A stretch of 64,000 bases of DNA from Clostridiales bacterium UBA4080. Lineage in GTDB: Bacteria; Bacillota; Clostridia; Lachnospirales; Vallitaleaceae. Numbering within the stretch: position 1 is the stretch's first letter; each line of letters opens with the position of its first letter. Under the pieces are notes generated by a model. The model searched no databases, had not been told where the DNA came from, and saw only the letters and a list, made by a program, of their open reading frames with translations. Position numbers and translations under genes: made by a program. Positions 2,748-19,790 of this stretch are shown one piece after another. Location of the stretch: positions 76,202-140,201 of the forward strand of contig DFYO01000019.1 in NCBI GenBank assembly GCA_002381865.1, in the 5' to 3' direction.

Positions 2748-3317
2748 CTAGCTGTACCATATTTTTTCGCAGCTGGTAGAAATACAGGTAGCCCCTGCAT
2801 CAAGACTTTCTATTATTTCATTTTTGCTTTCAATTAATCCGCCTGTAATTATTGGCACTTTTACAGTTTTGCTTATTTCTCTAGTAATTTTAGGCACTAC
2901 ACCTGGCATTATCTCAACTGCATCAGGTGTAACCTGATTGATTGAAATAATTCCTGCCTGAATAGATTTTGAGTCCAAAATAAAGAGCCTTTGTACCACA
3001 AAGCAATTAAGCTCTTTTGCTTTCTTAACCAAGCTTGTTTTAGTTGTAACCACTCCGCTGGGTTTAATTTCTTCTTGAATATACTTGAGAGAATATGCAT
3101 CATTTGCAAATCCTTTGATTAGATCAAGGTGCACAAAGACATATTTGTTTTTATCAATAACATCCTGTACGTCCTTTTTAAGATTAAATATATCACCATA
3201 AAGCATAAAAATAACCTCACATGGTGATGCAAGTGCATGGTCCAGCTTTTCTCTATCGCTAACCGCAGCTATGATAGGATTATCTGCAAGAATCTCATAG
3301 ATATCTTTTTTTCTCAT
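2748..3317 (-). CDS. glpP: glycerol-3-phosphate responsive antiterminator GlpP
   Basis: MRKKDIYEILADNPIIAAV...VHLDLIKG...IMPGV.PKI...PIITGGLI matches the G3P_antiterm family. Start moved to the ATG at 3317, preceded by GGAGGCG. Confidence 0.85.
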   Translation of the reverse strand: MRKKDIYEILADNPIIAAVSDREKLDHALASPCEVIFMLYGDIFNLKKDVQDVIDKNKYVFVHLDLIKGFANDAYSLKYIQEEIKPSGVVTTKTSLVKKAKELNCFVVQRLFILDSKSIQAGIISINQVTPDAVEIMPGVVPKITREISKTVKVPIITGGLIESKNEIIESLDAGATCISTSCEKIWYS

Positions 3318-3593
3318 TTTCGCCTCCGAATATCTTGATTCAATAATAATCAAATATGTTTTGCGTCCCCGCATTTTTTAATTGCATTTCAAAATCACCT
3401 TAGCCCAAAAACAAAAAACCGCAAAACCTACTTTATTGTTTATACTAACTTTATGATTATAACATAAATTTTACTAATAATTCGTAGTAATTTTACTATA
3501 TCAACATAACAATGTCAAGGTAAACAATATTATTTTGCACCTAGTATATACCCCAAAATTACTACATCATTCTCAAATATTTCTCAATAATAA

Positions 3594-3681: not shown

Positions 3682-5604
3682 TTACTTATTCAGGTTTCTG
3701 ATAATATCATATTGCTGGTCAGTACTTTCAATAAAGCCCTGTACCTTGGTTTCGATTCCAGCATAATCATTAAACTCTACAAATGCTTTTCTTAATTTTT
3801 CAATAATATCATCAGGAATATCCTTTCTTGCAGCTAGTGCATCCTTAGGAATATCATCTGTCTTTGATATAATGTTTAGTTCATGAACAGGTATTCCATT
3901 CGCTTCGGCCTTTTCAAACGCTTCATTATAGGTAGCTCCAGCGTCTATTTCCCTAGACATAACTGAGTTGATTACATTATCATGGTTTCCTAAGAAGGTA
4001 ACCTTATTAAAGATTGTGTCAGGATTTAAGCCGCTCTTTTTAATGCTGTCTTTTGCATATAGATATCCTGAAGCACTGTTTTCGTCAACATAACCAAAGG
4101 ATTTACCCTTTAGGTCATTCATATTCTTAACTTCACCGTCTTTTCTAGCTATTATATAGCCATTGTAATAGCTCTTTCCACCAACCTTAGGAGTTACTAT
4201 AGGTTTAACACCACACTTTTCATGAGCATTAACATAGGCAAATGGTGAGAACCATCCAATATCAATAATACCCTTTTCAATACCTTCACTTAATGCATCA
4301 TAATTACGAACAATAATTGTTCTTGCCTTGAAGCCTATGCTTGCACATACTCTTTCTAAGATAGGCACATACATCTTCTTAATACTCTGTGGTTCAGCAA
4401 ATGGGTTAACCCCAAATATAATCTCATTGTCTTTTTTGAAATTAACTGCTTCTTTTTGAAGTACCTCAGCCATTTCACTAATCTTATTACAGAAAACAAG
4501 AATTTCTTTGTTTTTCTTGTTTTGCAAATCTACCATTTGAATAGACTTATAGGTTACGTTGTGTGTTTCTTCTACCGCAATAGCTACATCCTCAATTGCT
4601 TTTTCAATTTCCATTGCACTATTTTTTTGAATTGTCGAAAGTCCGCTAAGTGCCGACAAATCAGTCTTAACATCCTTAAGAATTGTGCTGATTTCTCCAA
4701 TAACTGTTGCTGATTCAGTTACAACCACATCAACATCATTCATCTTATCGCCAATTTCGCTCATTGCAATATTAGTTGCATCTATTTTTTCAAGAATGTT
4801 TTTAACTACGCCTTCAATTACAGAAATCGCATCATCGGTCTGTTCAGCAAGCTTTCTAATTTCACTTGCAACTACCGAAAAGCCTCTTCCTGCCTCGCCA
4901 GCTCTTGCCGCTTCAATTGCAGCATTAAGTGCCAGAAGATTTGTCTGACTGGAAATCTTTCTAATATAATCAACAATTTCATTGATTTTCTTAGAGGCGC
5001 TTAAAAGCTGTTCATTATTGTCAGTAGCTGTCAAAATAATATCAGCAAAGCTCTTCATTACTTCACCAATGCTACTGATAGTTGTTTTGTTTTTATCCAG
5101 CATTTGAATGGATGTTTCAGAATGTTGTTCTATTTCCAATACACTTGAATTCAAATTAGTAGATGTATCCACCAGCTCATTGATGCTGGCATTGATTTCC
5201 TGAGAGCTTGCCGCATTCTGTTCACTGAATTTTTCAATCTCATAGGAGATTTTAGCAAGCTTTTCAAAGGTATTTATATTATCTTGTGAGAGCCATAATA
5301 GCTGCTGTGCATCAAATCCCATGTTCTCTGCTATATTAAATAACTGCTCATCCAATCCCGAACCTACAATATTAATTGCTTTAGTCTTTGGAGCGCTTTC
5401 AGGCGCTTTATATTGCTGCGTCTGCTCCTGTGGTCTTGCAGTATCCTGATTTAATGTGTAATCAGTTAATACTACTGCAATAACTCCTCCAATAACCGCC
5501 AGCAACAAATTGGTAATTCCTTGGGTTCCCATAAAATAAAGGACACCCTGTACTACTGTAATTCCAATTCCCGCTGCCAGATAAAACTTAACTTTAGTAT
5601 TCAT
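3682..5604 (-). CDS. methyl-accepting chemotaxis protein with C-terminal PhnD-like substrate-binding domain
   Basis: Two N-terminal TM helices with no periplasmic domain. MCP signalling core [37 protein letters not shown]. The C-terminal 246 aa carry [20 protein letters not shown], a phosphonate-binding-protein-like motif. Start set at MNTKV (5604), which has a GGGTGG SD. Confidence 0.85.
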
Positions 5605-6034
5605 AGTCAAACCACCCCGCAAAATTTTTTAGTATTTCACCACATAGCCTTTAAGTTTTAAAGCTAAACGCATATCGAACTCTCATTTTTAGAATATTAA
5701 TATTCTATGGAATGCCTTTCTTGTATGTCAGGTAAGTTTTGACTTTCTAAATTAAGTCTAGCTTTCCTATTATAGAATCAAAAGCACTTCTCACACTCTT
5801 ATGTATCACATAAATCAATTATATTCTATGCCTAATTCCTTGTCAAGAGCTCTGGGCTTTATTAACTTTGTATATTTAAAGTTTTTTTAAAAGTATTTTT
5901 TTGTATAAATATTACCGAATATACAGTTTTCTATTGTTTGTACCCTCTATTACTATAGCAATTACTTTAATATTTAAAGAGTTTTATTCGTGACAGAATT
6001 AGTCCACACTTTGTTATTGCTGACAATTATTGTT

Positions 6035-9164: not shown

Positions 9165-10532
9165 TTACACGTTTTCTATAATTCTTGCAACATGAATTCC
9201 ACTCGCGGCTGCTTGAGATAATGAATGCGTAACTCCCGAGCAGTCTCCCAAAACGTAGAGTCCTTTCACATTGGTTTCAAGGTTTTCATCTACTTCAATA
9301 TTTGAATTGTAAAATTTAACCTCAACACCATATAATAGTGTATCTTCATTTGCAGTCCCTGGTGCAATTTTATCCAATGCATAAATCATCTCAACAATAT
9401 CATCTAACTGTCTTTTTGGTAAAACCAAGCTCAAATCCCCAGGAGTTGCATTTAACGTTGGATTTAAAAACGACTTTAGCATCCTTCTTTCACTACTTCT
9501 TCTTCCTTTTACAAGATCTCCAAAGCGTTGCATCAAAACTCCGCCTCCTAGCATATTACTTAATCTTGCAATTGATTCGCCATATTCATTGCTGTTTTTA
9601 AAGGGTTCTGTAAATTTACTGGAAACTAGCAAAGCAAAATTTGTATTTTCTGTATGAAGTGCCTCTTCTGAATAGCTATGCCCATTTACCGTTACAATAT
9701 CACCGTAATTCTCAGTTACCACTTCTCCGTAAGGATTCATACAGAAGGTTCTTACTACATCATTATATTTTTTTGTCTTGTAGACAATTTTACTTTCATA
9801 CACATCATCTGTAATGTGTTTGAAAACCAAAGCCGGTAATTCAACTCTTACACCTATGTCTACTCGGTTATTAGTTGTTTTAATATCAAATTTTTCGCAT
9901 ACCTTTCCAATCCATTTTGAACCAGTTCTTCCTGTTGCAACAATTAGCTTTTTTGTTTCAAAGGTTTCTTCCTTTGTAGCTACATAGAAAGTATCCTTTT
10001 GTTTTTCTACATTTGTAACCTCAGTTTCAAATCTTATATCAATTTTATCTTTTATATATTGAAACATATTTTCTGCAATAACAAGATTTCTATCTGTACC
10101 TAGATGTCTTACTTTTGCATCCAACAAATGAAGGTCATGCCTTAATGCTTCTGTTTTCAGCTTACTGTTTTCTGTAGAATAAAGCTTTGCCTCTCTTCCT
10201 CCCATTGCAAGATTAATATCATCAACCTCCCACATCAAGCTAATAGCCTTATCTCTTCCAACAAATTTATACAGTTCTCCTCCAAAATTGTTTGTAATAT
10301 TAAATTTACCATCCGAAAAACCTCCCGCCCCATAGAAGCCTTCCATAATGCTGCAGCTTTTGCATTTACATTCAGTTATTCTTGGATTAATAGTTTTTGG
10401 ACATTTTCTTCTATCTAAAGGATAGCCCTTTTCTAGCATAAGGATTTTTTTATTGGTCCCGCTTTTTACTAACTCATAAGCACAAAATACACCTGCCGCA
10501 CCTGCACCCACTATAATCAAATCATACATCAT
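9165..10532 (-). CDS. FAD-dependent oxidoreductase (COG2509-like)
   Basis: N-terminal dinucleotide fold DLIIVGAGAAGVFCA, C-terminal GLYVLGDCSG. Start placed at the ATG at 10532, 5 nt after GAGG. Confidence 0.7.
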   Translation of the reverse strand: MMYDLIIVGAGAAGVFCAYELVKSGTNKKILMLEKGYPLDRRKCPKTINPRITECKCKSCSIMEGFYGAGGFSDGKFNITNNFGGELYKFVGRDKAISLMWEVDDINLAMGGREAKLYSTENSKLKTEALRHDLHLLDAKVRHLGTDRNLVIAENMFQYIKDKIDIRFETEVTNVEKQKDTFYVATKEETFETKKLIVATGRTGSKWIGKVCEKFDIKTTNNRVDIGVRVELPALVFKHITDDVYESKIVYKTKKYNDVVRTFCMNPYGEVVTENYGDIVTVNGHSYSEEALHTENTNFALLVSSKFTEPFKNSNEYGESIARLSNMLGGGVLMQRFGDLVKGRRSSERRMLKSFLNPTLNATPGDLSLVLPKRQLDDIVEMIYALDKIAPGTANEDTLLYGVEVKFYNSNIEVDENLETNVKGLYVLGDCSGVTHSLSQAAASGIHVARIIENV

Positions 10533-10769
10533 ATACACCTCGATTTCTTGTATTCTTTTATCTATTTGTTTTAATTTTTATTAAAAGCTCCACTGAAAAT
10601 TATATCAAATTATATTAAAATTGTATATCAAAAATAACTGTTTTCTATTTTGTTTGTCAATAATTACATAGTAACAATTTGTATTTTTCTATGACCCTTA
10701 GGGTTTCATTCGCCTTCCCATGCACATCGTGTGCATAAGGGAAGGCGTTATTTGTGACCACAAAGAACC

Positions 10770-10882: not shown

Positions 10883-11878
10883 TTAGTTTTGTACAAATGC
10901 AGGTGTATCTGCTGGTGCAAATAACAATTCTTTTAATTCTGCATCTAATTTCAATATTGAAATTGAAAATCCTGCCATATCCAATGATGTCATATAGTTT
11001 CCAACAATTGTTTTTGCAACTTTAATTCCTTTTTCAGCTAAAACTTCAGCAACTCTTAGGTTTGCAACGTATAGCTCCATTACAGGAGTTCCGCCTAATC
11101 CATTTACTAATACTGCAACCTCGTCACCGCTTGCAGGTTTTAAATCTTCAAGAATTTTTTCTAACAAATGATCAACTGTTTCATTTGCTGAACGCAATGT
11201 TTCTCTATGTGTTCCTGGCTCACCATGAATTCCCATTCCGATTTCAACTTCATCTTCACCAAGAACGAAGCTTGGTTTTCCAGCTGCTGGAACAGTACAG
11301 GTGGTTAATGCCATACCCATTGATTTAACATTTGTAATAACTTTTTCTGCAACTCTTTTCACTTCATCTAAGTCTGCTCCAGCTTCTGCCTTAGCTCCAG
11401 CAATCTTATGCACTAAAACAGTTCCTGCAATACCTCTTCTGCCTGTAGTCCATGTACTGTCTTCAACTGCAACGTCATCATTTACAACTACGTATTTAAC
11501 ATCAATTCCTTCTTCTGCTGCCATTTCTGCTGCCATTTCAAAGTTCATAATGTCCCCTGTGTAATTCTTAACTACCAATAAAACCCCTTTGCCGCCATCA
11601 ACTGCTTTTACTGCTTCAAATACCTGGTCAGGAGTAGGTGATGTAAATACAGCTCCTGCAACAGCTCCATCGAGCATTCCTTTTCCAACAAAACCTCCAT
11701 GTGAAGGCTCATGTCCACTTCCACCACCACTAACCAATGCAACTTTTGCTTGTGGCGCATTCGCTCTTACAAGCACTTCAAATCCTTCAACTCTCTTTAC
11801 ATAGCTCGGATGTGCTGCCACAATACCTTTAAGCATTTCATCAACTACATTGTCTGGATTGTTAATAATTTTTTTCAT
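10883..11878 (-). CDS. dhaK: dihydroxyacetone kinase subunit DhaK
   Basis: VALVSGGGSGHEPSHGGFVGKGMLDGAVAG is the Dak1 signature. Start at MKKIINN (11878) with an AGGAGG SD. Confidence 0.95.
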   Translation of the reverse strand: MKKIINNPDNVVDEMLKGIVAAHPSYVKRVEGFEVLVRANAPQAKVALVSGGGSGHEPSHGGFVGKGMLDGAVAGAVFTSPTPDQVFEAVKAVDGGKGVLLVVKNYTGDIMNFEMAAEMAAEEGIDVKYVVVNDDVAVEDSTWTTGRRGIAGTVLVHKIAGAKAEAGADLDEVKRVAEKVITNVKSMGMALTTCTVPAAGKPSFVLGEDEVEIGMGIHGEPGTHRETLRSANETVDHLLEKILEDLKPASGDEVAVLVNGLGGTPVMELYVANLRVAEVLAEKGIKVAKTIVGNYMTSLDMAGFSISILKLDAELKELLFAPADTPAFVQN

Positions 11879-11894: not shown

Positions 11895-13616
11895 TTAATT
11901 AATATCATTTATATTACTAGCAACAATCGTGCCAGTTAATAGTTCCTTAATCTTAGAAGCTTGATTATATGACATAATACTTTCTACAAATTGCTTTTCT
12001 GCCTTAGATTCTATTATTTGCTCTTTGATTTTCGGTATTGATGGGGCGCTCATACTTAGCTCATCTATGCCCATTCCAACAAGTAACCTTGTCATAATAG
12101 GGTCTCCAGCCATTTCACCACATATTCCTACCCATTTTCCGTTTTCATGTGCTGCCTCTGAAACCTTTTTAACAAGCCTCAAGATTGCAATATCAAAATG
12201 CGAATATAGCTTGCTGATTTTTTGATTTCCTCTGTCTACAGCTAATGTATATTGAACTAAGTCGTTTGTTCCAATACTGAAAAAGTCAACCTCCTTAGCA
12301 AATACATCCGCCATAATTGCCGCTGCCGGTGTTTCAACCATAATGCCAAGTTGTATATTTTCACCATACTTTACGCCTTCATTATCAAGTTGCTTTTTAG
12401 CTTCTTCAATTATTTCTTTTGCTTTATTTATTTCTTCAAGGCTGATTATCATAGGCAGCATTATAGCTACCCTTCCATAGGCAGAAGCTCTTAATATAGC
12501 TCTTATCTGAGTAATAAAAATATCTGTTCTTTCCAAACTTATTCTAATAGCACGAAATCCTAGAAACGGGTTTTCCTCTTTGCCTATTTCCAAATAAGAT
12601 AGAGGCTTGTCTCCTCCAATATCAAGCGTCCTTATAACGCATAATTCGTCTTTTAGCTTTTGCACTACATATTTATATGCTTCAAACTGTTCTTCCTCTG
12701 TAGGAAGTCTTTTTTTACCCATAAATATAAATTCTGTCCTAAAAAGCCCGACACCCTTACAGCCGTATTTCAAAGCCTCATCAATATCCTCCGGATTACC
12801 TATATTAGCAGCCAGAATTATTTCTCTGTTATCCTTGGTAATTGCCGGTATTTCATTTAAGCTCATATAATATGCCTTCTTCTTTTCCTCTTCCTTAAGC
12901 TGCTTATTATATTTGTCAATGCTATCTTTGTCTGGCTTCAATATAAGACTTCCATTATAACCGTCAATAATTGCAACATCTTCCTTACTATAGTCGCCTA
13001 TTTCTTCTCCAACGCCAACAACTGTTACAATGTTTTTAGATTTGGCAATAATTACCGCATGAGATGTAGTGCTTCCATTCCCCATAACAATTCCTGCAAT
13101 TTTTTCTTGTGGAAGATTTGCTACAACCGAGGGTTCAATTTCTTTGCCGTATAAAATAATATTATCCTGCTCAAAAACATTTTCCTCTATTCCCAAAATA
13201 ATTTTTAATACTCTTTTTGAAATATCCTTAACATCAACAGCTCTTTCTCTTAAATAAGGATCATCAAGGGCTCCCAGCATATCCGATAATTCTTTTGCTA
13301 CATTTATTATAGCTGTCGGAGCGCAGATATCAGCTTCAATTTGCTGTAAAGTCCCATCATAAAACATTGGATCCTTAAGCATAAGCATGTGTGCTTCCAT
13401 AATATCAGCCTGCTCTCTTTCATCCTCTTTTTTAGCTTTAATCAATATCTCGCTGAGTTGTTTTTCAGCTATAGCGATAGCTTGGTTTAATTTTTGTTTC
13501 TCCTGTTCAGAATCACCCTTTTGATAGGTTTTTAGCTCTTCTTCAAAGCTATCCCTTAATATCATAATTCTGCCAATACCAATACCTTCAACCACGCCCT
13601 TGCCTTTGAACTCCAT
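11895..13616 (-). CDS. ptsI: phosphoenolpyruvate-protein phosphotransferase (PTS enzyme I), full length
   Basis: Active-site region GSTTSHAVIIAKS, FFSIGTNDLVQYTLAVDR, GICGEMAGDP. Start at MEFKGKG (13616) after a GAGGTGG SD. Confidence 0.93.
   Translation of the reverse strand: MEFKGKGVVEGIGIGRIMILRDSFEEELKTYQKGDSEQEKQKLNQAIAIAEKQLSEILIKAKKEDEREQADIMEAHMLMLKDPMFYDGTLQQIEADICAPTAIINVAKELSDMLGALDDPYLRERAVDVKDISKRVLKIILGIEENVFEQDNIILYGKEIEPSVVANLPQEKIAGIVMGNGSTTSHAVIIAKSKNIVTVVGVGEEIGDYSKEDVAIIDGYNGSLILKPDKDSIDKYNKQLKEEEKKKAYYMSLNEIPAITKDNREIILAANIGNPEDIDEALKYGCKGVGLFRTEFIFMGKKRLPTEEEQFEAYKYVVQKLKDELCVIRTLDIGGDKPLSYLEIGKEENPFLGFRAIRISLERTDIFITQIRAILRASAYGRVAIMLPMIISLEEINKAKEIIEEAKKQLDNEGVKYGENIQLGIMVETPAAAIMADVFAKEVDFFSIGTNDLVQYTLAVDRGNQKISKLYSHFDIAILRLVKKVSEAAHENGKWVGICGEMAGDPIMTRLLVGMGIDELSMSAPSIPKIKEQIIESKAEKQFVESIMSYNQASKIKELLTGTIVASNINDIN
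11919..11934 (-). promoter_or_regulatory. sigma-54 (-24/-12) promoter in front of dhaK, inside the 3' end of ptsI
   Basis: Minus strand reads TGGCACGATTGTTGCT (TGGCAC-N5-TTGCT). It ends ~40 nt upstream of the dhaK ATG. Confidence 0.7.
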
Positions 13617-13626
13617 AAATCCACCT

Positions 13627-13893
13627 CTAGTCTTCATAAAAATTATTTGTAATCAAGGTATCCAAGGCTTCTATTGCTTTATCTTCATCTGCTCCTTCTA
13701 CTGCTACTGTCAGCTCCTGGCCTGTTTTAATACCCAAAGACATAATCATCAATAAGCTTTTGGCATTTGCTTTTTTATTATTCCCAAGCAAGGTAATATT
13801 GCTTATATATTGAGAAGAAATTTTTGCAATTTCAGCTGCTGGACGAGCATGTATCCCCAGCGAATTAATTATTGTATATTTATTCTGTTTCAT
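13627..13893 (-). CDS. ptsH: HPr phosphocarrier protein
   Basis: GIHARPAAEI (His15 motif) and AKSLLMIMSLG (Ser46-like). Start at MKQNKY (13893) with a GGAGG SD. Confidence 0.9.
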   Translation of the reverse strand: MKQNKYTIINSLGIHARPAAEIAKISSQYISNITLLGNNKKANAKSLLMIMSLGIKTGQELTVAVEGADEDKAIEALDTLITNNFYED

Positions 13894-13935
13894 TATATAG
13901 TCCTCCATAATTCTTTGAGCAAAAACCTCAGAGCG

Positions 13936-14334
13936 TTATTGAAGCTTTAGTACCTCTCTTGCTAGCTCTGCTGCTTCAATTACTTCATCAATATTTCCTC
14001 CGATAAATGCTTGTACAGCTGCACTTATAGAGCCTTCCATAACTGGAGCGTCTGCAATTTTTGCGTCAATTTTTACTCCCGCTTCTTCTAAAAGTTCAAT
14101 AGCCAGATTAGCACTTAATACCGCACTTCCTAAATCTACAAGAATTACAACGCCTTCTCCGGTATCCGCCATTCTTATAGCCTCGCTGATTCTAACAGCA
14201 TCAGTTCCAATTCCTCCATCCTCCATTCCTCCTGCAGAAACTATTTTCTGATTCGGACCTGCCATTTGCATAGAAAGCTCTGCAATTCCTTCTGCAACCT
14301 TTTTACTATGAGACACTATTACGATTCCAACCAC
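13936..14334 (-). CDS. dhaM: dihydroxyacetone kinase phosphotransfer subunit DhaM (EIIA-Man-like domain only)
   Basis: MVGIVIVSHSKKVAEGI, an EIIA-mannose-type His motif. 132 aa, sits between dhaL and ptsH. Confidence 0.85.
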   Translation of the reverse strand: MVGIVIVSHSKKVAEGIAELSMQMAGPNQKIVSAGGMEDGGIGTDAVRISEAIRMADTGEGVVILVDLGSAVLSANLAIELLEEAGVKIDAKIADAPVMEGSISAAVQAFIGGNIDEVIEAAELAREVLKLQ

Positions 14335-14336
14335 AA

Positions 14337-14972
14337 TTAGCCCTCCATTCCATTTGCTTTATAGTAATCCGTTGCAGCCTTGAGCATAATGTAAAAAGAC
14401 GTTGCACCCGGATCCTGATGTCCAATGCTTCTATCTCCCAAATAGCTTGCTCTTCCCTTTGTAGCTCTGATTGTTTTAGTAAATTCAATTCCTTCCTCGG
14501 CAGCCTTTAAAGCTAAGTCCAGACAATCAGCAATACTTTTACCTTGCTCATGAGCACTTTTTAATGCTTCAATTGCTGGTTCAATTGCATCTATCATAGT
14601 CTTCTCACCCTTAACTGCTTTACCTCTGTCTTTTATTCCAGTTAGTGCAGCTGTCAGCATTTTTTCCATAGCTGTCAAGTCAATTGTTTCTTGCCCCACA
14701 GCTTCTGCTCCCGCTTTCATAAATGCAGTTCCGTATAAAGGACCCGAAGCACCTCCAACTGTAGAAATTAAAGTCATACCCACTTTTTTTAATGTAGCGC
14801 CAACATCCTTATCTTCATCAGTAATCTTAGGAACAACCGCATTGAAGCCTCTAGCCATATTAATACCATGGTCAGCATCTCCTATTGCTCCATCAAGCTC
14901 AGTAAGATATTCTTTGTTTTTAGTAATCTCTTCATTCACAGCCTTTAAGTAGCCATTAATATTTGTTGCCAT
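14337..14972 (-). CDS. dhaL: dihydroxyacetone kinase ADP-binding subunit DhaL
   Basis: LDGAIGDADHGINMARGF, GGASGPLYG (Dak2). Start moved to MATNING (14972), preceded by GGAGG. Confidence 0.9.
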   Translation of the reverse strand: MATNINGYLKAVNEEITKNKEYLTELDGAIGDADHGINMARGFNAVVPKITDEDKDVGATLKKVGMTLISTVGGASGPLYGTAFMKAGAEAVGQETIDLTAMEKMLTAALTGIKDRGKAVKGEKTMIDAIEPAIEALKSAHEQGKSIADCLDLALKAAEEGIEFTKTIRATKGRASYLGDRSIGHQDPGATSFYIMLKAATDYYKANGMEG

Positions 14973-15041
14973 CTTTTTTTCCTCCATTTGATCTTGATAA
15001 TAGATTTGGTATATGGCCCCTATTATCTTGCTAATATAATA

Positions 15042-15057
15042 AGCAAGAAGTGTGCCA
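15042..15057 (-). promoter_or_regulatory. sigma-54 (-24/-12) promoter in front of dhaL-dhaM-ptsH-ptsI
   Basis: Minus strand reads TGGCACACTTCTTGCT, starting 1 nt after the stop codon of the EBP gene. Confidence 0.75.
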
Positions 15058-15058
15058 G

Positions 15059-17101
15059 CTATTTGCATAAATTAAATTTCCTAGCCTTTGCTGCAACCGT
15101 ATTATGTGTAAGTCCTAATACCTTTCCCGCAGCATTAAAGCTTTTATATTTTTCAAGAGCCTTTTCAATAACAATTTTTTCATATTCTTCCCAGGAAAGC
15201 ATATCCACCTCTTTTTCCACAATGCACTCAAAATCATCTGTTTCTATTTGCCTTTGGTTGTCTAAAATATACATTGGAATATTTTCTGCCCTTACAACAT
15301 TTCCTTCCATTAAAATCATAGTTCTTTCCATTACATTTTCCAGTTCCCTGATATTGCCTGGCCAAGTATAATTCTTTAGAGCCCTAAGCGCCTCTTTCTC
15401 GAACATAATTTTATCTTTTCCCAAATCTTCAGATATTCTTTCACAAAAATGTTCCGCGAGAATCGGAATATCCTCTCTTCGATCTCTTAAAGGCGGCAGC
15501 CAAATAGGAATAACATTAAGACGATAGTATAAATCTTCTCTAAACTCTCCATTTTTTACCATTTGCTCTAAATCTTGGTTTGTAGCCGCTACAATCCTTA
15601 CATCTACCTTAATATTCTTTTCTCCACCTACCCTTTGAAATTCCTTGCTCTGAACTACACGAAGTAGCTTAACCTGCATACTTTTATCAAGCTCTCCGAT
15701 TTCATCTAAAAATATAGTTCCTTTATCTGCTAGTTCAAATCTTCCCAGCTTTGTTTTATATGCTCCTGTAAATGAGCCTTTTTCATGTCCAAATAATTCA
15801 CTCTCAATCAGTGTAGGAGGGATGGCTCCGCAATTTACTCTAACAAATGGTTCTGAAGCCCTAGAGCTAGAATAGTGAATTGCTTCAGCTATAAGCTCCT
15901 TGCCTGTTCCGCTCTCTCCTCTAATTAAAACAGTATATTTGCTTGTAGCAGCTTTTGCTGCTGTTGTCATGCAATCATAAAGCTTTCCGCTTACTCCCTT
16001 AATATTCTCAAATGCGGGGCCTAGCTTTTTAACTCTGATTAATTCCTCCTGCAAATAGTCAGCCTTCGCTGATGCCTTGCTCAGCTTTTCCATTAATGTC
16101 TGAACCTCAGTAATATCCTTAATTATGGATATTCCTCCCATTATCTGTTCATCTACTATTAACGGATTAACATTGCTTACAACTGTTACTCCATTCTCTT
16201 TTTTGCTGATTCCACCCCTTACCGCTTTGCCATGTTCAAGAACCTTAACCCTGTCTCCTTCTGGTGACAATTCCCTGACATTAACTCCTATCAATTCCTT
16301 GGCTTTTTTGTCAATTATTTTGCAATATGCTGCATTTACATAAGTAATTTCACCATTATTATCAAAAAAACAAATTCCATCTTGCACAGATTCCAATATC
16401 AATTGATATTTTTCCTTAAGCTCTTTTATTTCTTTTAATTGCCAAGAAACATTTGTAAGCATTGAAACATCTTCAAATATACTGACTGCGCCTCTTATCT
16501 GGTTTTCAACCAAAAGCGGTGAGCTATTAGTTACAACTGTATAATCACCAATGTTTTGAGTATAGCCAATCTCAGTTTTTTTAGTTTGAACGATTTCTGG
16601 CAAAATAGAGTCTGGGAATACATCTCTTATATCCCTTCCAGCAATTCTATCTGCCGGTACATCAAATATTCTTTCAGCCTCCTTATTAAAAAAGGTTACA
16701 ATATTATTTTCATTTATTACAATCAATCCATTTGCAATGCTGTCGAAAATATTTTCTGCTGTCAAAATATTATCCTGTAAGATACTATCAATATCTCCTA
16801 CCGCATTTTGGTCCAATTCGAAATCACCACCAAGATATTCCGCCATTAATATTGATGCTTCTTCAGCACCCTCACCTTCTGTAAGCATTTCAAACTCTTC
16901 TTTAGCTTTAATCTTCATTGAAATCAATAGCAGAATGCTATTTAGCGGCACCTCTTTATATGCCCCCTTTTTCACCTTAAATTCTACATTGTATTTTTTT
17001 TGGAGTTCCTCTGCTTTCTGAACTATCATTGCCGCAACTCTTGCGTGCAAGCCCTTAGCATGTTGCATAACAATTTTTTTACTTATACTCTTTTTAGCCA
17101 T
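15059..17101 (-). CDS. sigma-54-dependent transcriptional activator with N-terminal HPr-like domain, two PAS-like regions, AAA+ domain and HTH
   Basis: N-terminus [12 protein letters not shown] (HPr His motif). AAA+ domain: [21 protein letters not shown] (GAFTGA variant), VRIVAATN. C-terminal HTH: [21 protein letters not shown]. Confidence 0.88.
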
Positions 17102-17143
17102 AATATTACCCCTGTTATCAATTAATAGTCACATTATTATAAT

Positions 17144-17159
17144 AGCAAGAATCGTGCCA
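17144..17159 (-). promoter_or_regulatory. sigma-54 (-24/-12) promoter in front of the EBP gene
   Basis: Minus strand reads TGGCACGATTCTTGCT. It ends ~43 nt upstream of the EBP ATG at 17101. Confidence 0.75.
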
Positions 17160-17203
17160 AGTATTATTTGACTTTTTTTCTTGCTATCTGTTAATTATCT
17201 TCT

Positions 17204-17237
17204 TATTTAGATAAAGTTGTCAATAATTATCTAAATA
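17204..17237. promoter_or_regulatory. perfect 11-bp inverted repeat, candidate enhancer (UAS) site
   Basis: TATTTAGATAA-N12-TTATCTAAATA. The centre lies roughly 60 nt upstream of the -24 element at 17154..17159. Overlaps the rpoN stop codon. Confidence 0.4.
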
Positions 17238-18580
17238 TATTCCCTTCTTTTATCTGCTGCCATTATTCCAAGCTGACTTCTGTATTTTGCTACTGTTCTT
17301 CTGGAAATCTTCATGCCTTCTTGCTGAAGCTTCTCAACTATCATCATGTCGCTCAGTGGCTCTCTCTTATTTTCAGCTTTAACAATACTTAATATTGCTT
17401 GCTTTATGCTATCAGAGGAATTATCCTGTTGAATATTTTTCCCAACGTTTTTGCATGAAAAAAAATATTTCAGAGGGTACAATCCCCATTTACACAGGAG
17501 ATATTTATCATTTATTGCTCTGCTAACAGTGGATTCATGCATTTGTGTAATATCTGCAACGTCTTTCAAGTTTAGAGGTCTTAAAAAGCCTTTTCCTTTT
17601 TCAAAAAAATCCTTTTGCTGTTTAGCCAATACCTCTGCAATTTTTTCTAAGGTGTCGTTTCTCTGATTAATGCATTTTAATAGCCAACTTGCATTACTGT
17701 AATTATCACCCAAATACTTTACCAGCTCTTTATCTTGAGTTAATTTCAAATATTTACAGTATTCTGTGTTTATCTTTATATTTGGAATATTTGCTTCATT
17801 TATAGAAATAACCAACCCCATTTCACCTTGTTCAATCACAATATCAGGCTTGATATATTGAGTAATTCCAGAGTAAAATGAAGCTCCTGGCTTAGGATTA
17901 AGCATTTTTATTTCTCGAATAAGCTCCTGTGTCTCAGCTATTTCAATTCCCAGTTCTTCTGCTATATGCTTGATTTTATTATCAGCAATCTTTTCCAAAT
18001 ACTTATCAGCAAGCAGATATGTCAATGTATTCTTTTTCCCCTGATTTTCAAGCTGTATCAGCAAACACTCTCTTAAGCTCCTAGCCCCAACTCCTGAAGG
18101 CTCCATCTTTTGTATTATTACCACAGCCTTCTCTGCTGATTTTTTATCACATCTGAGTTTTTTTGTAATTTCCTCAAGCTCAAAGCTTAAATATCCTTTT
18201 TCATCTAAGCTTTCAACAAGAAATTCTACTATCAATTTAGTTTTTTTATCTAGTTTAAGAAATATTAATTGTTCTTTGAGGAACTCTGATAATGTTTGTT
18301 TAATAAACGATTCATCCTTTATTTCATTTGAAAAATCCTGGTCGTCTTGTCCCTTTTTGTTTTTATGCTTGTAATAATCCGCATCCTCCTGATTCCTTTG
18401 TATTAAAACAGAGCTTTTATCTGATTGTTCGTCATATTCAAGTGCAGGATTACTTAATATTTCTTCATGAATCATTTCTGACAATTCTTCGTTGCCTAGC
18501 TTTAAAATTTTTAATGAATATTCCATTTTTGGCGTCAGTATTAAGTTTTGGGAGTAAATCATATCCATATCAAAATTCAT
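17231..18580 (-). CDS. rpoN: RNA polymerase sigma-54 factor
   Basis: Region I LILTPKMEYSLKILKLGNEELSEMIHEEILSNPALE. C-terminal RpoN box HESTVSRAINDKYL. Confidence 0.93.
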   Translation of the reverse strand: MNFDMDMIYSQNLILTPKMEYSLKILKLGNEELSEMIHEEILSNPALEYDEQSDKSSVLIQRNQEDADYYKHKNKKGQDDQDFSNEIKDESFIKQTLSEFLKEQLIFLKLDKKTKLIVEFLVESLDEKGYLSFELEEITKKLRCDKKSAEKAVVIIQKMEPSGVGARSLRECLLIQLENQGKKNTLTYLLADKYLEKIADNKIKHIAEELGIEIAETQELIREIKMLNPKPGASFYSGITQYIKPDIVIEQGEMGLVISINEANIPNIKINTEYCKYLKLTQDKELVKYLGDNYSNASWLLKCINQRNDTLEKIAEVLAKQQKDFFEKGKGFLRPLNLKDVADITQMHESTVSRAINDKYLLCKWGLYPLKYFFSCKNVGKNIQQDNSSDSIKQAILSIVKAENKREPLSDMMIVEKLQQEGMKISRRTVAKYRSQLGIMAADKRREYI

Positions 18581-18596: not shown

Positions 18597-19790
18597 TTAT
18601 CCCTTTTTAATAGGAAGCCTTATCAAAAAGCTGCTCCCTTGATTTTCTTCACTTTGAGCTTCAATTTCTCCCCCATGCTTATTAACAATAATGTCATAAG
18701 AAATACTTAATCCAAGCCCCGTTCCTCTTTGAGAGGCTTTAGTTGTGTATAGCGGATTGAATATCTTTTCTAGATTTTCGTTATTTATTCCCGGTCCGTT
18801 ATCAGATATTCTAATGCAAACATATTCACTTTCTTTATAGGCATTTATATGTATATGCCCTCGGTCTTCACGATACTGTTTTCTTATTGCTTCAATTCCA
18901 TTAAGCATAACATTCAAGAAAACCTGTCCTAGCTGACTTGAATTTGCCCATATCTCCGGGAGCTTATCTATTTCTTTTGTAATATCAACCGAATCCTTAG
19001 CCTCATTTGCAATAACTATAATTATTTGATTAATAAGACTTTCAATATCGCATATATCATATTCATTTTTAGCCTTTGCCCAAGACAGGTTCAAAAGCGA
19101 TTGAATTATCTGTGAAACCTTTTCTAAAGAGTCCTTTGAGGAATCTATGATCAAACGTACTTCTTCAAAATTCCCCTCTTCAAATTCTCCTTTTTTAACC
19201 TTCTCACAGTAATTTGCCAGCTGTTGAAGATTAAGATACGCTTTTTCAATAGGTTGGTTTATTTCATATCCTATCCCCGCTGCAATCTCTCCAATATTAG
19301 ACATTTTTCTTGATTGCACCAAATGAAACTGTGCATCCTCTAAGAGCTTGTTGGCAATTTTCAGTTCTTCATTTTGACCCTTTACAACCTCCAGCATTTC
19401 TCTAAGCATTCTTGTATTGGCCCTTGTTCTTGCTGCTGCACTAACTCTGGCTTTAAATTCAATTATTTCTATAGGCTTTTGAATATAATCATTTGCTCCG
19501 TATTCAAAGCATGATTTTAAGCTCTCCTTATCATCAAGGGATGTTAACATAATAATCTGAATATCGTTAAATGCATCAATATCACGTACATTTCTAAGAA
19601 CTTCAATTCCGCTCATTTCTGGCATAATAATATCAAGCAAAAGAATATCTATTGCTTCTGTTTCTAATATTCCGATAACATCTTGCGGCCTTTGGCACAA
19701 GATTCCCGTATAATCATTAAAATAGGTTTTCAGATAACCGTCAGCAAACTTTAAATTTAGTTTGTCATCATCTACTACCAGCACTCTCAT
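18597..19790 (-). CDS. REC domain fused to a histidine-kinase-like core whose H-box His is replaced by Tyr
   Basis: REC: VVDDD, LLLDIIMPEMSG, MLTS, IQKPI. H-box position reads AAGIGYEINQPI. The N, G1 and G2 boxes are intact (NVMLNGIEA, DNGPGI, GTGLGLSIS). Confidence 0.8.
   Translation of the reverse strand: MRVLVVDDDKLNLKFADGYLKTYFNDYTGILCQRPQDVIGILETEAIDILLLDIIMPEMSGIEVLRNVRDIDAFNDIQIIMLTSLDDKESLKSCFEYGANDYIQKPIEIIEFKARVSAAARTRANTRMLREMLEVVKGQNEELKIANKLLEDAQFHLVQSRKMSNIGEIAAGIGYEINQPIEKAYLNLQQLANYCEKVKKGEFEEGNFEEVRLIIDSSKDSLEKVSQIIQSLLNLSWAKAKNEYDICDIESLINQIIIVIANEAKDSVDITKEIDKLPEIWANSSQLGQVFLNVMLNGIEAIRKQYREDRGHIHINAYKESEYVCIRISDNGPGINNENLEKIFNPLYTTKASQRGTGLGLSISYDIIVNKHGGEIEAQSEENQGSSFLIRLPIKKG

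Follow-up and report, generated by a model that had tools for sequence, protein, structure and literature searches.

A sigma-54 activator with an HPr-like N-terminal domain, encoded among phosphotransferase and dihydroxyacetone kinase genes, and its predicted control by enzyme I

What does a sigma-54 activator sense when its sensory half opens with a domain resembling HPr, the phosphocarrier protein of the phosphoenolpyruvate:sugar phosphotransferase system (PTS)? This question is raised by a locus of Clostridiales bacterium UBA4080, contained in a 64,000-nucleotide stretch of contig DFYO01000019.1 (assembly GCA_002381865.1, positions 76,202 to 140,201) that was analysed as a whole and is called the window here; all coordinates are those of the window. 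The gene in question (15059..17101, minus strand) codes for a 680-aa enhancer-binding protein (EBP) and belongs to a row of minus-strand genes in the order rpoN, EBP gene, dhaL, dhaM, ptsH, ptsI and dhaK, the dha genes specifying a PTS-dependent dihydroxyacetone (DHA) kinase. The gene is a further member, from a little-studied lineage, of a catalogued family of HPr-EBP fusions that is known only from genome analysis. We propose that phosphorylated enzyme I (EI~P) reversibly phosphorylates His19 of the HPr-like domain, so that the activator would read the drain of phosphoryl groups through the PTS, a proposal that we judge to stand at even chances. The best explanation of the locus is that the EBP would be dedicated to activating its own gene, dhaL-dhaM-ptsH-ptsI and dhaK.

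Assignment of the N-terminal ~95 residues (16817..17101, minus strand) as an HPr-type domain with an intact active-site histidine is solid. The Pfam profile PF00381 (PTS-HPr) matches residues 6-89 with 50.0 bits in the whole protein and with 54.9 bits when residues 1-100 are taken alone, the gathering cutoff being 23, and a search against solved structures matched HPr, Crh and NPr only. That alignment places His19 (codon CAC, 17047-17045), the predicted phospho-acceptor within the motif GLHARVA (residues 17-23), on His15 of HPr and Ser55 on Ser46; Arg21 is the equivalent of Arg17. An AlphaFold2 (AF2) model of the domain only (residues 1-111, alignment A1; pLDDT 86.4, pTM 0.78) shows the beta-alpha-beta-beta-alpha-beta-alpha order of the open-faced beta-sandwich of the HPr family. 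When this model was compared with the PDB by Foldseek, the best 39 matches were all HPr, Crh or NPr, with target-normalised TM-scores of 0.63-0.88 (0.75-0.88 for the ten best) and a root-mean-square deviation of 1.5-2 Å.

The remainder of the protein is that of a genuine sigma-54 EBP, as AAA+ motor, contact loop, DNA-binding domain, promoters and rpoN are all present. Two PAS domains follow the HPr-like domain, namely PAS1 (residues 116-212, 16466..16756; Pfam PAS_10, E 1.8e-8) and PAS2 (residues 230-332, 16106..16414; Pfam PAS and PAS_9), the latter common to long and short forms of the family. The AAA+ sigma-54 interaction domain with its lid (residues 369-618, 15248..15997) contains the Walker A motif GESGTGKE, a Walker B motif, an arginine-finger region and the motif VRIVAATN, and consists of a Sigma54_activat match (PF00158, residues 369-533; 244 bits, cutoff 20) and an AAA_lid_14 match (PF25601, residues 539-618; 95 bits). 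A helix-turn-helix (HTH) DNA-binding domain (residues 638-678, 15068..15190; PF18024 HTH_50, 39 bits) completes the protein. No PRD, EIIA or EIIB domain was matched in Pfam at E <= 1, and there was no Pfam match to a GAF domain. The sigma-54 contact loop reads GSFTGA, a variant that occurs three times in the family beside GAFTGA (49), GAYTGA (9) and GAFTSA (4) and that is also tabulated in Table S2 of Nie et al. 2019 (PMC6615313). The original prediction, made from the letters of the window, had described an HPr-like N-terminus of about 95 residues with GLHARVA, two PAS-like regions, an AAA+ core and an HTH, and each of these domains is borne out by the profile matches, the first also by its fold.

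Conservation of the histidine was assessed in two ways. A genome scan with one genome per species and the family motif G[LIV]H[AV]RVAAM yielded 65 loci, and 66 EBP domains were aligned with 65 co-encoded free HPrs in the numbering of E. coli HPr. Gly13, His15 and Arg17 are present in 66/66 EBP domains and 65/65 free HPrs; the scan motif forces invariance at positions 13-21 of the EBP domains in these loci, and the claim that the histidine is conserved is therefore drawn from pattern-free searches. Because the motif itself demanded G-x-H-x-RVAAM, an unconstrained phmmer search (HMMER) was run with residues 1-110 against 1.84 billion representatives. The histidine was kept in all EBP-linked matches, even where the surrounding motif had diverged to GLHARIVAM, GIHTRIAAM, GMHIRAAAM, GIHARTAAM or GIHLRMAAE, and the Arg17 equivalent was lost in one of them (P0044). 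Conservation of His19 among orthologues, which had been put forward as a point to check, thus extends from the aligned relatives (66/66) to every EBP-linked match of the motif-free search. The sole match without the histidine, P0065 (87 aa), is a free-standing HPr-like protein with Cys in its place (GLCTRLVTY). A further match, P0034 (1880 aa), aligns with residues 25-75 in 13 separate stretches and is probably an artefact of charged or coiled-coil repeats.

Beyond the scan motif, helix 1 is near-invariant (V23 in 66/66, Q24 in 63/66, K/R25 in 65/66), and it is more conserved in the EBP domains than in the free HPrs. The positions that form the contacts with enzyme I in the EIN-HPr complex are chemically like those of the co-encoded free HPrs (L/I/V at 14, A/V at 16, A at 20, L/I at 47 and M/L at 48). 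Residues of the helix linking the domain to the PAS region are conserved as well (D93, F94, D105, L108 and N111, in the pattern LExDF...VDxLLxEN). Other positions separate the two groups: position 18 is Val in 66/66 EBP domains and Pro in 65/65 free HPrs, position 54 is Lys or Arg in 62/66 EBP domains and Gly in 60 free HPrs, and the Asp that occupies position 69 in 64 free HPrs is lost from the EBP domain.

The second phosphorylation site of HPr suggests a different signal, in which Ser55 would be phosphorylated by HprK/P and the EBP would read the glycolytic state of the cell (fructose 1,6-bisphosphate and ATP), as HPr and Crh do for CcpA. Serine is indeed found in the window protein and in 55/66 relatives, compared to 64/64 free HPrs. 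However, the position varies, with N, T or G in 11/66 EBP domains and A or N in divergent members; the Lys45 that stands beside Ser46 in 64/65 free HPrs is lost; and no hprK was seen in the window or in the loci, which were not searched systematically for that gene. We regard this alternative as very improbable.

The fusion is not a recent or local event. The nearest neighbour of each EBP HPr-domain is another EBP HPr-domain in 66/66 cases, and the EBP domains are 25.0% identical to their cognate free HPr and 24.9% identical to non-cognate free HPrs. A single clade with equal cognate and non-cognate identity implies that the fusion arose once, long ago, and sequence comparison thus places it in one old clade that spans Clostridia and Negativicutes. 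The closest relatives among the scan loci are HGW-Firmicutes metagenome-assembled genomes and Petrocella sp. (Vallitaleaceae, Lachnospirales), which are 62-64% identical in the HPr region and 67-70% identical over the whole EBP and which have the same gene order. The other loci come from Lachnospiraceae (Roseburia), Desulforadius, Haloimpatiens and many Negativicutes (Sporomusa, Pelosinus, Propionispora, Selenomonas, Mitsuokella and Megamonas), and the C. botulinum/sporogenes 'DhaQ' cluster is among the matches of the pattern-free search.

An initial homologue search with the sensory half as query gave 27 proteins, 24 of which contain PF00381 and three of which (P0008-P0010) do not. One of the latter, P0009, is an artefactually truncated gene call, as indicated by loci L005 and L006, where an HPr-like open reading frame (ORF; 87 aa in L005, 71 aa in L006) overlaps a PAS-PAS-EBP ORF (L005 8754-9017 and 9001-10830; L006 1719-3747). 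This apparent split was considered as a natural unfused variant and rejected, since it is produced by a +1 frameshift in a run of eight to nine A residues and a fused version (P0027) exists. The frameshift lies in 'LQIKK|GDTV' and is an assembly error or slippage. P0027 (382 aa) itself consists of an L005-type HPr-PAS1 followed directly by the DNA-binding C-terminus of RpoN (PF04552); it most likely derives from a chimeric contig, though rpoN shares the operon of that organism.

The original prediction treated the architecture as if it were new, and this does not hold. Nie et al. 2019 (BMC Genomics 20:565, PMC6615313) name PTS-HPr as one of the domains found at the N-terminus of Clostridiales EBPs, and give CA_C3088, Cbei_2147, CBO3439 and CPF_2667 as PTS_HPr-PAS-PAS EBPs under the group name 'DhaQ', to which they assign dhaKLM and ptsI with tabulated predicted sigma-54 promoters and enhancers. 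The role of the HPr domain is not discussed there, and Clostridiales EBPs are said to sense mainly ligands. Earlier, the HPr tree of Comas et al. 2008 (PMC2405797) had included the HPr domains of 'cperfrocr' (C. perfringens) and 'cacetrocr' (C. acetobutylicum) without comment, and sigma-54 control of dhaKLM in clostridia is recorded in two surveys (PMC6510779; PMC12316311). A full-text literature search for experimental work on an HPr-EBP fusion found none, the large PTS reviews lying outside its reach. In public databases the proteins carry generic names ('sigma 54-interacting transcriptional regulator', 'PAS domain S-box protein' or sometimes 'HPr family phosphocarrier protein'), and no dedicated NCBIfam model exists, the best matches, PrdR and DhaR, being far below their cutoffs. 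For example, the PrdR equivalog NF041552 scores 496 bits against a cutoff of 795 over residues 224-675 only and thus fails.

The window protein shares with the DhaQ group, which is itself known from genome analysis only, the order PTS_HPr-PAS-PAS-AAA+-DNA-binding domain and the placement of sigma-54 promoters before dhaKLM and/or ptsI, represented in the window by P_dhaL and P_dhaK; the enhancer TTGRTA-N5-TAYCAA of that group is common to most of the relatives examined. It differs in its lineage, near Petrocella (Vallitaleaceae, Lachnospirales), in being only about 30-35% identical in the HPr region, in the gene order rpoN-EBP-dhaLM-ptsHI-dhaK, in the presence of three promoters, one of them autoregulatory, and in a canonical enhancer that is unrecognisable at the internal promoters and degenerate upstream of the EBP gene. 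What our survey adds is the single old clade, the finding that the targets are parts of the PTS phosphoryl chain and not specifically dha genes, and TTGRTA-N5-TAYCAA as the family enhancer, which is degenerate in the window.

The nature of those targets emerged from a survey of about 70 loci, made by tblastn of the window proteins against all loci plus four divergent members. Fourteen loci have the arrangement of the window, rpoN-EBP-dhaL-dhaM-ptsH-ptsI-dhaK (type A); about 23 have EBP-dhaK-dhaL-dhaM-ptsH-(ptsI) (type B); and about 30 have EBP-ptsH-ptsI and no dha genes (type C). Variants include EBP-ptsI-ptsH-dhaKLM (L072) and a C. sporogenes locus in which ptsI is divergent from the EBP gene (L075). 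Apart from L019 and L020, every type A locus has rpoN directly upstream of the EBP gene, an arrangement shared by L003, L004 and L017. At almost every locus ptsH, usually ptsI, and/or dhaKLM stand immediately beside the EBP gene, and it is exactly these units that conserved sigma-54 promoters precede: type A has them before dhaL and dhaK, type B before dhaK and type C before ptsH. The adjacent genes and the placement of the promoters together imply that what the regulon members have in common is the chain of PTS phosphoryl transfer, made up of EI, HPr and the DHA kinase that depends on HPr; DHA metabolism as such is not the shared element. The DHA-centred framing of the original prediction was consequently too narrow, the recurring partner being ptsH/ptsI with or without dhaKLM, and it is more likely that the HPr-like domain reads how charged the PTS chain is in general than the flux of DHA in particular.

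The number of PAS domains follows these classes in part. Among dha-linked loci 32 have two PAS domains and two have one, compared to three and 25, respectively, among ptsHI-only loci, with the proviso that the loci are not phylogenetically independent. The domain missing from the short, mostly ptsHI-only form is PAS1, and it may add a DHA-specific input, which is a weak inference; a strictly DHA-specific role was softened, since two PAS domains go with pts targets only in L022, L055, L065 and the C. sporogenes protein. It could also be argued that the PAS domains are the real sensors, of a small ligand or redox cofactor, with the HPr-like domain being a structural relic that has no signalling role. 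This would agree with Nie et al. 2019 (PMC6615313), who describe ligand binding as the main way in which Clostridiales EBPs respond, and with the presence of PAS2 in all members. In a relic, however, G13, H15 and R17 would not have survived throughout Clostridia and Negativicutes together with a helix 1 that hardly varies, nor would a relic remain linked to PTS genes, and we consider this explanation the least credible of those weighed here.

Promoter analysis of the window accords with the predicted regulon. Within the 64 kb there are just three copies of the exact sequence TGGCAC-N5-TTGCT, each of them on the minus strand; 0.03 would be expected by chance, and none of 100 shuffled sequences (0/100) reached three; the three promoters of which the original prediction spoke correspond to these sites (17159-17144, 15057-15042 and 11934-11919). 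The -24/-12 promoter P_ebp, TGGCACGATTCTTGCT (17144..17159), is an exact consensus that precedes the start codon of the EBP gene by 43 nt and has an equivalent upstream of the EBP gene in locus L007 and, as GGGCAT-N5-TTGCT, in loci L008-L011; it is a predicted autoregulatory promoter and is conserved in the clade. P_dhaL, TGGCACACTTCTTGCT (15042..15057), is predicted to drive dhaL-dhaM-ptsH-ptsI and is found at the same position in 14/14 type A loci, and P_dhaK, TGGCACGATTGTTGCT (11919..11934), lies in the 3' end of ptsI and recurs in 12 type A loci. If dhaL and dhaK began at their longest-ORF starts (15068 and 11908, respectively), their own promoters would lie within or downstream of the start; the starts supported by a ribosome-binding site, 14972 (ATG after GGAGG) and 11878 (ATG after AGGAGG), correct this, with the result that P_dhaL begins 2 nt past the EBP stop codon and P_dhaK falls within the last ~13 codons of ptsI. 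Transcription from P_ebp, P_dhaL and P_dhaK is predicted to begin near 17133, 15031 and 11908, respectively. No terminator-like site was found in the window between rpoN, the EBP gene and the dha/pts genes, which makes read-through from P_ebp likely. An inverted repeat, GATAATAG-N16-CTATTATC, lies in the 5' untranslated region of dhaL (14996-15027, minus strand), with an inverted repeat that differs from it at the corresponding place in L007; the window repeat was considered as a regulatory RNA hairpin and rejected, as its folding energy of -8.4 kcal/mol is not significant (z = -1.0).

Upstream of P_ebp there is a sigma-70-type promoter-like site, TTGACA-18-GATAAT (17194..17223, minus strand), which matches the consensus at 11/12 positions and whose TTGACAAC box is conserved in L008-L011. 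On this basis it is a candidate basal promoter of the EBP gene. With respect to enhancers, a de novo palindrome search of type C loci returned TTGGTA-N5-TACCAA with 23 occurrences where 0.5 were expected, and the same search for enriched gapped palindromes gave nothing in types A and B at the chosen thresholds. In its general form, TTGRTA-N5-TAYCAA, this family enhancer shows enrichment between -60 and -210 for types B and C as well as for Lachnospiraceae type A loci (35 sites in 18 regions for type C and 19 in 17 for type B, where the background is about 0.06-0.09 sites per region), and it matches the published 'DhaQ' sites of Nie et al. 2019 (PMC6615313). L007, L008, L010 and L011 have a strong copy (15-19 bits) in the intergenic region upstream of the EBP gene, located in L008-L011 about 95 nt upstream of the promoter. 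At the equivalent position in the window is TAGATAATTATTGACAA (17217..17233, minus strand), 74 nt upstream of P_ebp, a degenerate copy and weak candidate that is the best nearby match to the position weight matrix and scores 2.1, under the shuffled background. An exact TTGATA-N3-6-TATCAA has no match in the window, and no site of the pattern TTGRTA-N4/5-TAYCAA, which in the DhaQ group stands 60-400 nt upstream of the promoter, lies with two or fewer mismatches near any of the three window promoters.

From these features we infer that His19 is phosphorylated and that EI is the donor, and a possible course of events can be outlined. His19, in the N-cap position of the strongly conserved helix, would be reversibly phosphorylated by EI~P and might also exchange phosphate with free HPr~P, in which case the phosphorylation level of the domain would mirror the charge of the PTS phosphoryl chain. 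Drain of the chain by a substrate would leave the domain dephosphorylated; in the window the route would be dihydroxyacetone by way of HPr, DhaM and DhaL, and in ptsHI-only relatives any PTS sugar would have this effect. The signal would then pass through the conserved linker helix and the PAS domain or domains and release assembly of the AAA+ part, sigma-54 transcription of EI, HPr and DHA kinase would rise in a loop where supply follows demand, and positive autoregulation at P_ebp would reinforce that loop.

Several observations weigh against this proposal. The HPr-like domain scores 44.1 with the NCBIfam HPr subfamily model TIGR01003, narrowly under the cutoff of 47.9, as fits a diverged HPr paralogue. 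Proline never occurs at position 18 in any family member (V, I, T, A or M stands there instead), and Lys45, Gly54 and Asp69, which are near-invariant in free HPrs, are lost. The AF2 model of the full-length EBP has a pTM of 0.31, so that domain packing is uninterpretable and intramolecular contacts are unsupported. Four loci are exceptions to the linkage, L074 and L024 having dhaKLM only and L003 and L004 having neither pts nor dha genes adjacent, and ptsH-ptsI as an invariant partner was softened for this reason. No enhancer is recognisable within 450 nt of P_dhaL or P_dhaK in the window or in L007-L011, and it is the conservation of these two promoters from which their direct activation by the EBP is proposed; they abut or lie inside coding sequence, unlike the promoters of distant relatives, which have roomy intergenic regions with clear enhancers. 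P_dhaL and P_dhaK might be reached by looping from the one upstream site, through cryptic sites hidden in coding sequence, or by EBP acting from solution once it has been auto-amplified. Finally, the sign of regulation is a guess, with a dephosphorylated active form being the least certain part of the scheme.

The losses at positions 18, 45, 54 and 69 indicate that the domain is no ordinary carrier, and they keep alive an explanation in which it carries phosphate no longer and instead binds EI, DhaM, DhaL or another partner, control being exerted by contact or sequestration. Analogies would be E. coli DhaR with DhaK and DhaL, or HPr bound to Rsd, FruR or glycogen phosphorylase. The loss of Pro18 is universal, the greater conservation of helix 1 relative to free HPrs suggests an extra or different interface, several complexes of HPr with regulators, such as 4xwj, 7x7h and 9s8k, are among the PDB fold matches, and the PAS-AAA+-HTH part aligns with E. 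coli DhaR (281 bits). In contrast, an invariant His15 and a nearly invariant Arg17 over a very divergent family are what phosphotransfer demands, and such sites usually tolerate change once that demand is gone, as in Crh, which has Gln15. We therefore rate docking as an improbable substitute for phosphorylation, although the two are not mutually exclusive.

The sign of the response to EI~P is a separate matter. We prefer the dephosphorylated domain as the active form because about 30 members control ptsHI only and PTS substrates induce ptsHI in E. coli and B. subtilis; in the former this occurs through Mlc with dephospho-EIICB-Glc, and in the latter through GlcT. The opposite assignment, in which phospho-His19 is the active form as in the HPr-dependent activation of LevR, MtlR and LicT, would switch the operon off when preferred PTS sugars drain the chain, a control of the catabolite-repression type. 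It fits the conservation data equally well, activating phosphorylation dependent on HPr~P is the common catabolite-repression device among PTS-controlled activators of Firmicutes, and it suits the dha-linked members in that DHA and glycerol are secondary carbon sources. Yet the ~30 ptsH-ptsI-only loci would then raise EI and HPr under a charged, idle PTS, when they are least needed, and phosphorylation of DHA drains the same chain, making induction self-defeating unless the EI and HPr of the operon are insulated from the general PTS. On these grounds we hold activation by phosphorylation to be unlikely, if less so than the other alternatives considered, and keep to our preference for dephosphorylation as the activating event.

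Comparison with characterised systems sets the proposed mechanism in context. The activity of LevR, CelR and MtlR is set by histidine phosphorylation from PTS proteins, and LevR and CelR are sigma-54 EBPs. Like these regulators, the window protein, as proposed, would compete with sugar transport for PTS phosphoryl groups; unlike the LevR type, it has no PRD, EIIA or EIIB domain, its regulatory domains are N-terminal and not C-terminal, and its receiver, an HPr paralogue, would be a direct substrate of EI, one step higher than substrates of HPr or EIIB. E. coli DhaR (GAF-PAS-AAA+-HTH) also controls a PTS-dependent DHA kinase operon and senses the phosphorylation state of the Dha system; it does so by contact of its N-terminal domain with DhaL::ADP and DhaK, and it acts at a sigma-70 promoter. 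The PAS2-AAA+-HTH part of the window protein aligns with DhaR (NF008485, 281.6 bits, residues 204-678), but the score is far under the cutoff of 551 and the protein is thus not a DhaR orthologue; it has an HPr-like domain and PAS1 in place of GAF, and its promoters are of the sigma-54 type. The ptsHI-only members would be analogous to Mlc/EIICB-Glc of E. coli and GlcT of B. subtilis in that ptsHI expression is tied to phosphorylation of a PTS component. These proteins and mechanisms are otherwise unrelated, Mlc being a repressor that is sequestered at the membrane and GlcT a PRD antiterminator, and neither has an HPr domain. With free HPr, Crh and NPr the EBP domain shares the fold, the His15/Arg17 site and, in most members, Ser46; unlike free HPr, it is fused to a regulator, has Pro18 replaced and is only about 25% identical to the co-encoded free HPr.

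Whether these properties amount to a class of their own is a broader proposal, which we put at slightly below even chances. HPr-domain EBPs would be a third class of PTS-controlled activators, beside PRD antiterminators and PRD/EIIA/EIIB activators, in which an HPr paralogue mounted on a sigma-54 AAA+ motor would serve as direct receiver from EI~P. This one-step phosphorelay from PTS to sigma-54 would set the levels of EI, HPr and DHA kinase across Clostridia and Negativicutes, and in the clade of the window the activator may also fire two enhancer-less internal promoters from one remote or degenerate enhancer or, after auto-amplification, from solution. It would reach the gut genera Roseburia, Megamonas, Mitsuokella and Selenomonas as well as Clostridium species. 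If true, it would be a new kind of receiver domain for sigma-54 activators, which otherwise are under response-regulator, GAF, PAS, V4R or PRD modules, and the regulator would gate DHA and glycerol use together with PTS capacity in solvent-producing clostridia and gut commensals. If His19 is an EI-dependent switch, this would also explain how expression of the general PTS proteins is set in many anaerobic Firmicutes and Negativicutes; in this respect, the review of Mitchell observes that clostridial ptsI and ptsH are oddly unlinked, which may reflect uncharacterised regulation (PMC4706839). The 2019 catalogue already implies every principle that the window gene illustrates, and the gene will be no surprise to PTS specialists. 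It is a well-defined lead on a possible link from EI to sigma-54, and a compact test case with rpoN, activator, three promoters, EI, HPr and DHA kinase within 8 kb.

The neighbouring genes, all on the minus strand, are readily identified, and Pfam and NCBIfam matches agree with the predicted position of the EBP gene between rpoN and a dha operon that has its own HPr, enzyme I and DhaM. Directly upstream is rpoN (17231..18580), which codes for sigma-54 with the domains Sigma54_AID, Sigma54_CBD and Sigma54_DBD. Downstream follow dhaL (14337..14972; Dak2, 188 bits), the ADP-binding subunit of the PTS-dependent DHA kinase; dhaM (13936..14334; PF03610 and TIGR02364 dha_pts, 129 bits against a cutoff of 98), a single-domain phosphoryl donor subunit of EIIA-Man type; and ptsH (13627..13908; PF00381, 95 bits; TIGR01003, 97.5 against 47.9), a canonical free HPr with GIHARPAA and the K-S46 motif. 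These are followed by ptsI (11895..13637; PEP-utilisers_N, PEP-utilizers and PEP-utilizers_C), coding for enzyme I, and dhaK (10883..11878; Dak1, 462 bits), coding for the DHA-binding subunit.

Other genes flank this set, also on the minus strand. Upstream of rpoN, positions 18597-19790 code for a hybrid protein of 397 aa whose N-terminal part is a response-regulator receiver and whose C-terminal part is a HATPase_c domain, without a Pfam match to HisKA and with its best full-length NCBIfam resemblance to the LvrB type. This gene ends 17 nt before rpoN with no terminator between, and a 53% identical homologue is located 2.4 kb upstream of rpoN in L007. Downstream of dhaK, positions 9165-10538 code for a FAD-dependent oxidoreductase (Pyr_redox_2 and FAD-depend_C, HI0933-like), separated from dhaK by 345 nt containing sigma-70-like sites; its L007 counterpart is 87% identical and occupies the same position. 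About 8 kb downstream of the dha genes are a gene for a GlpP-type glycerol-3-phosphate antiterminator (2748-3374) and one for a DUF6905 protein (1469-1810), the latter adjoined by a 116-aa ORF (1831-2181). In Anaerosolibacter (L073, 6137-9103) the order glpP-DUF6905-DUF6905-glpK comes directly after an EBP-dhaKLM-ptsH operon, and in L005 glpP follows rpoN; DUF6905 may belong to the glycerol regulon. Lastly, positions 3682-5622 code for a 646-aa protein in which a methyl-accepting chemotaxis protein signalling domain (residues 202-347) precedes a C-terminal phosphonate-type periplasmic binding domain (residues 403-638), an order that is unusual for a chemoreceptor.

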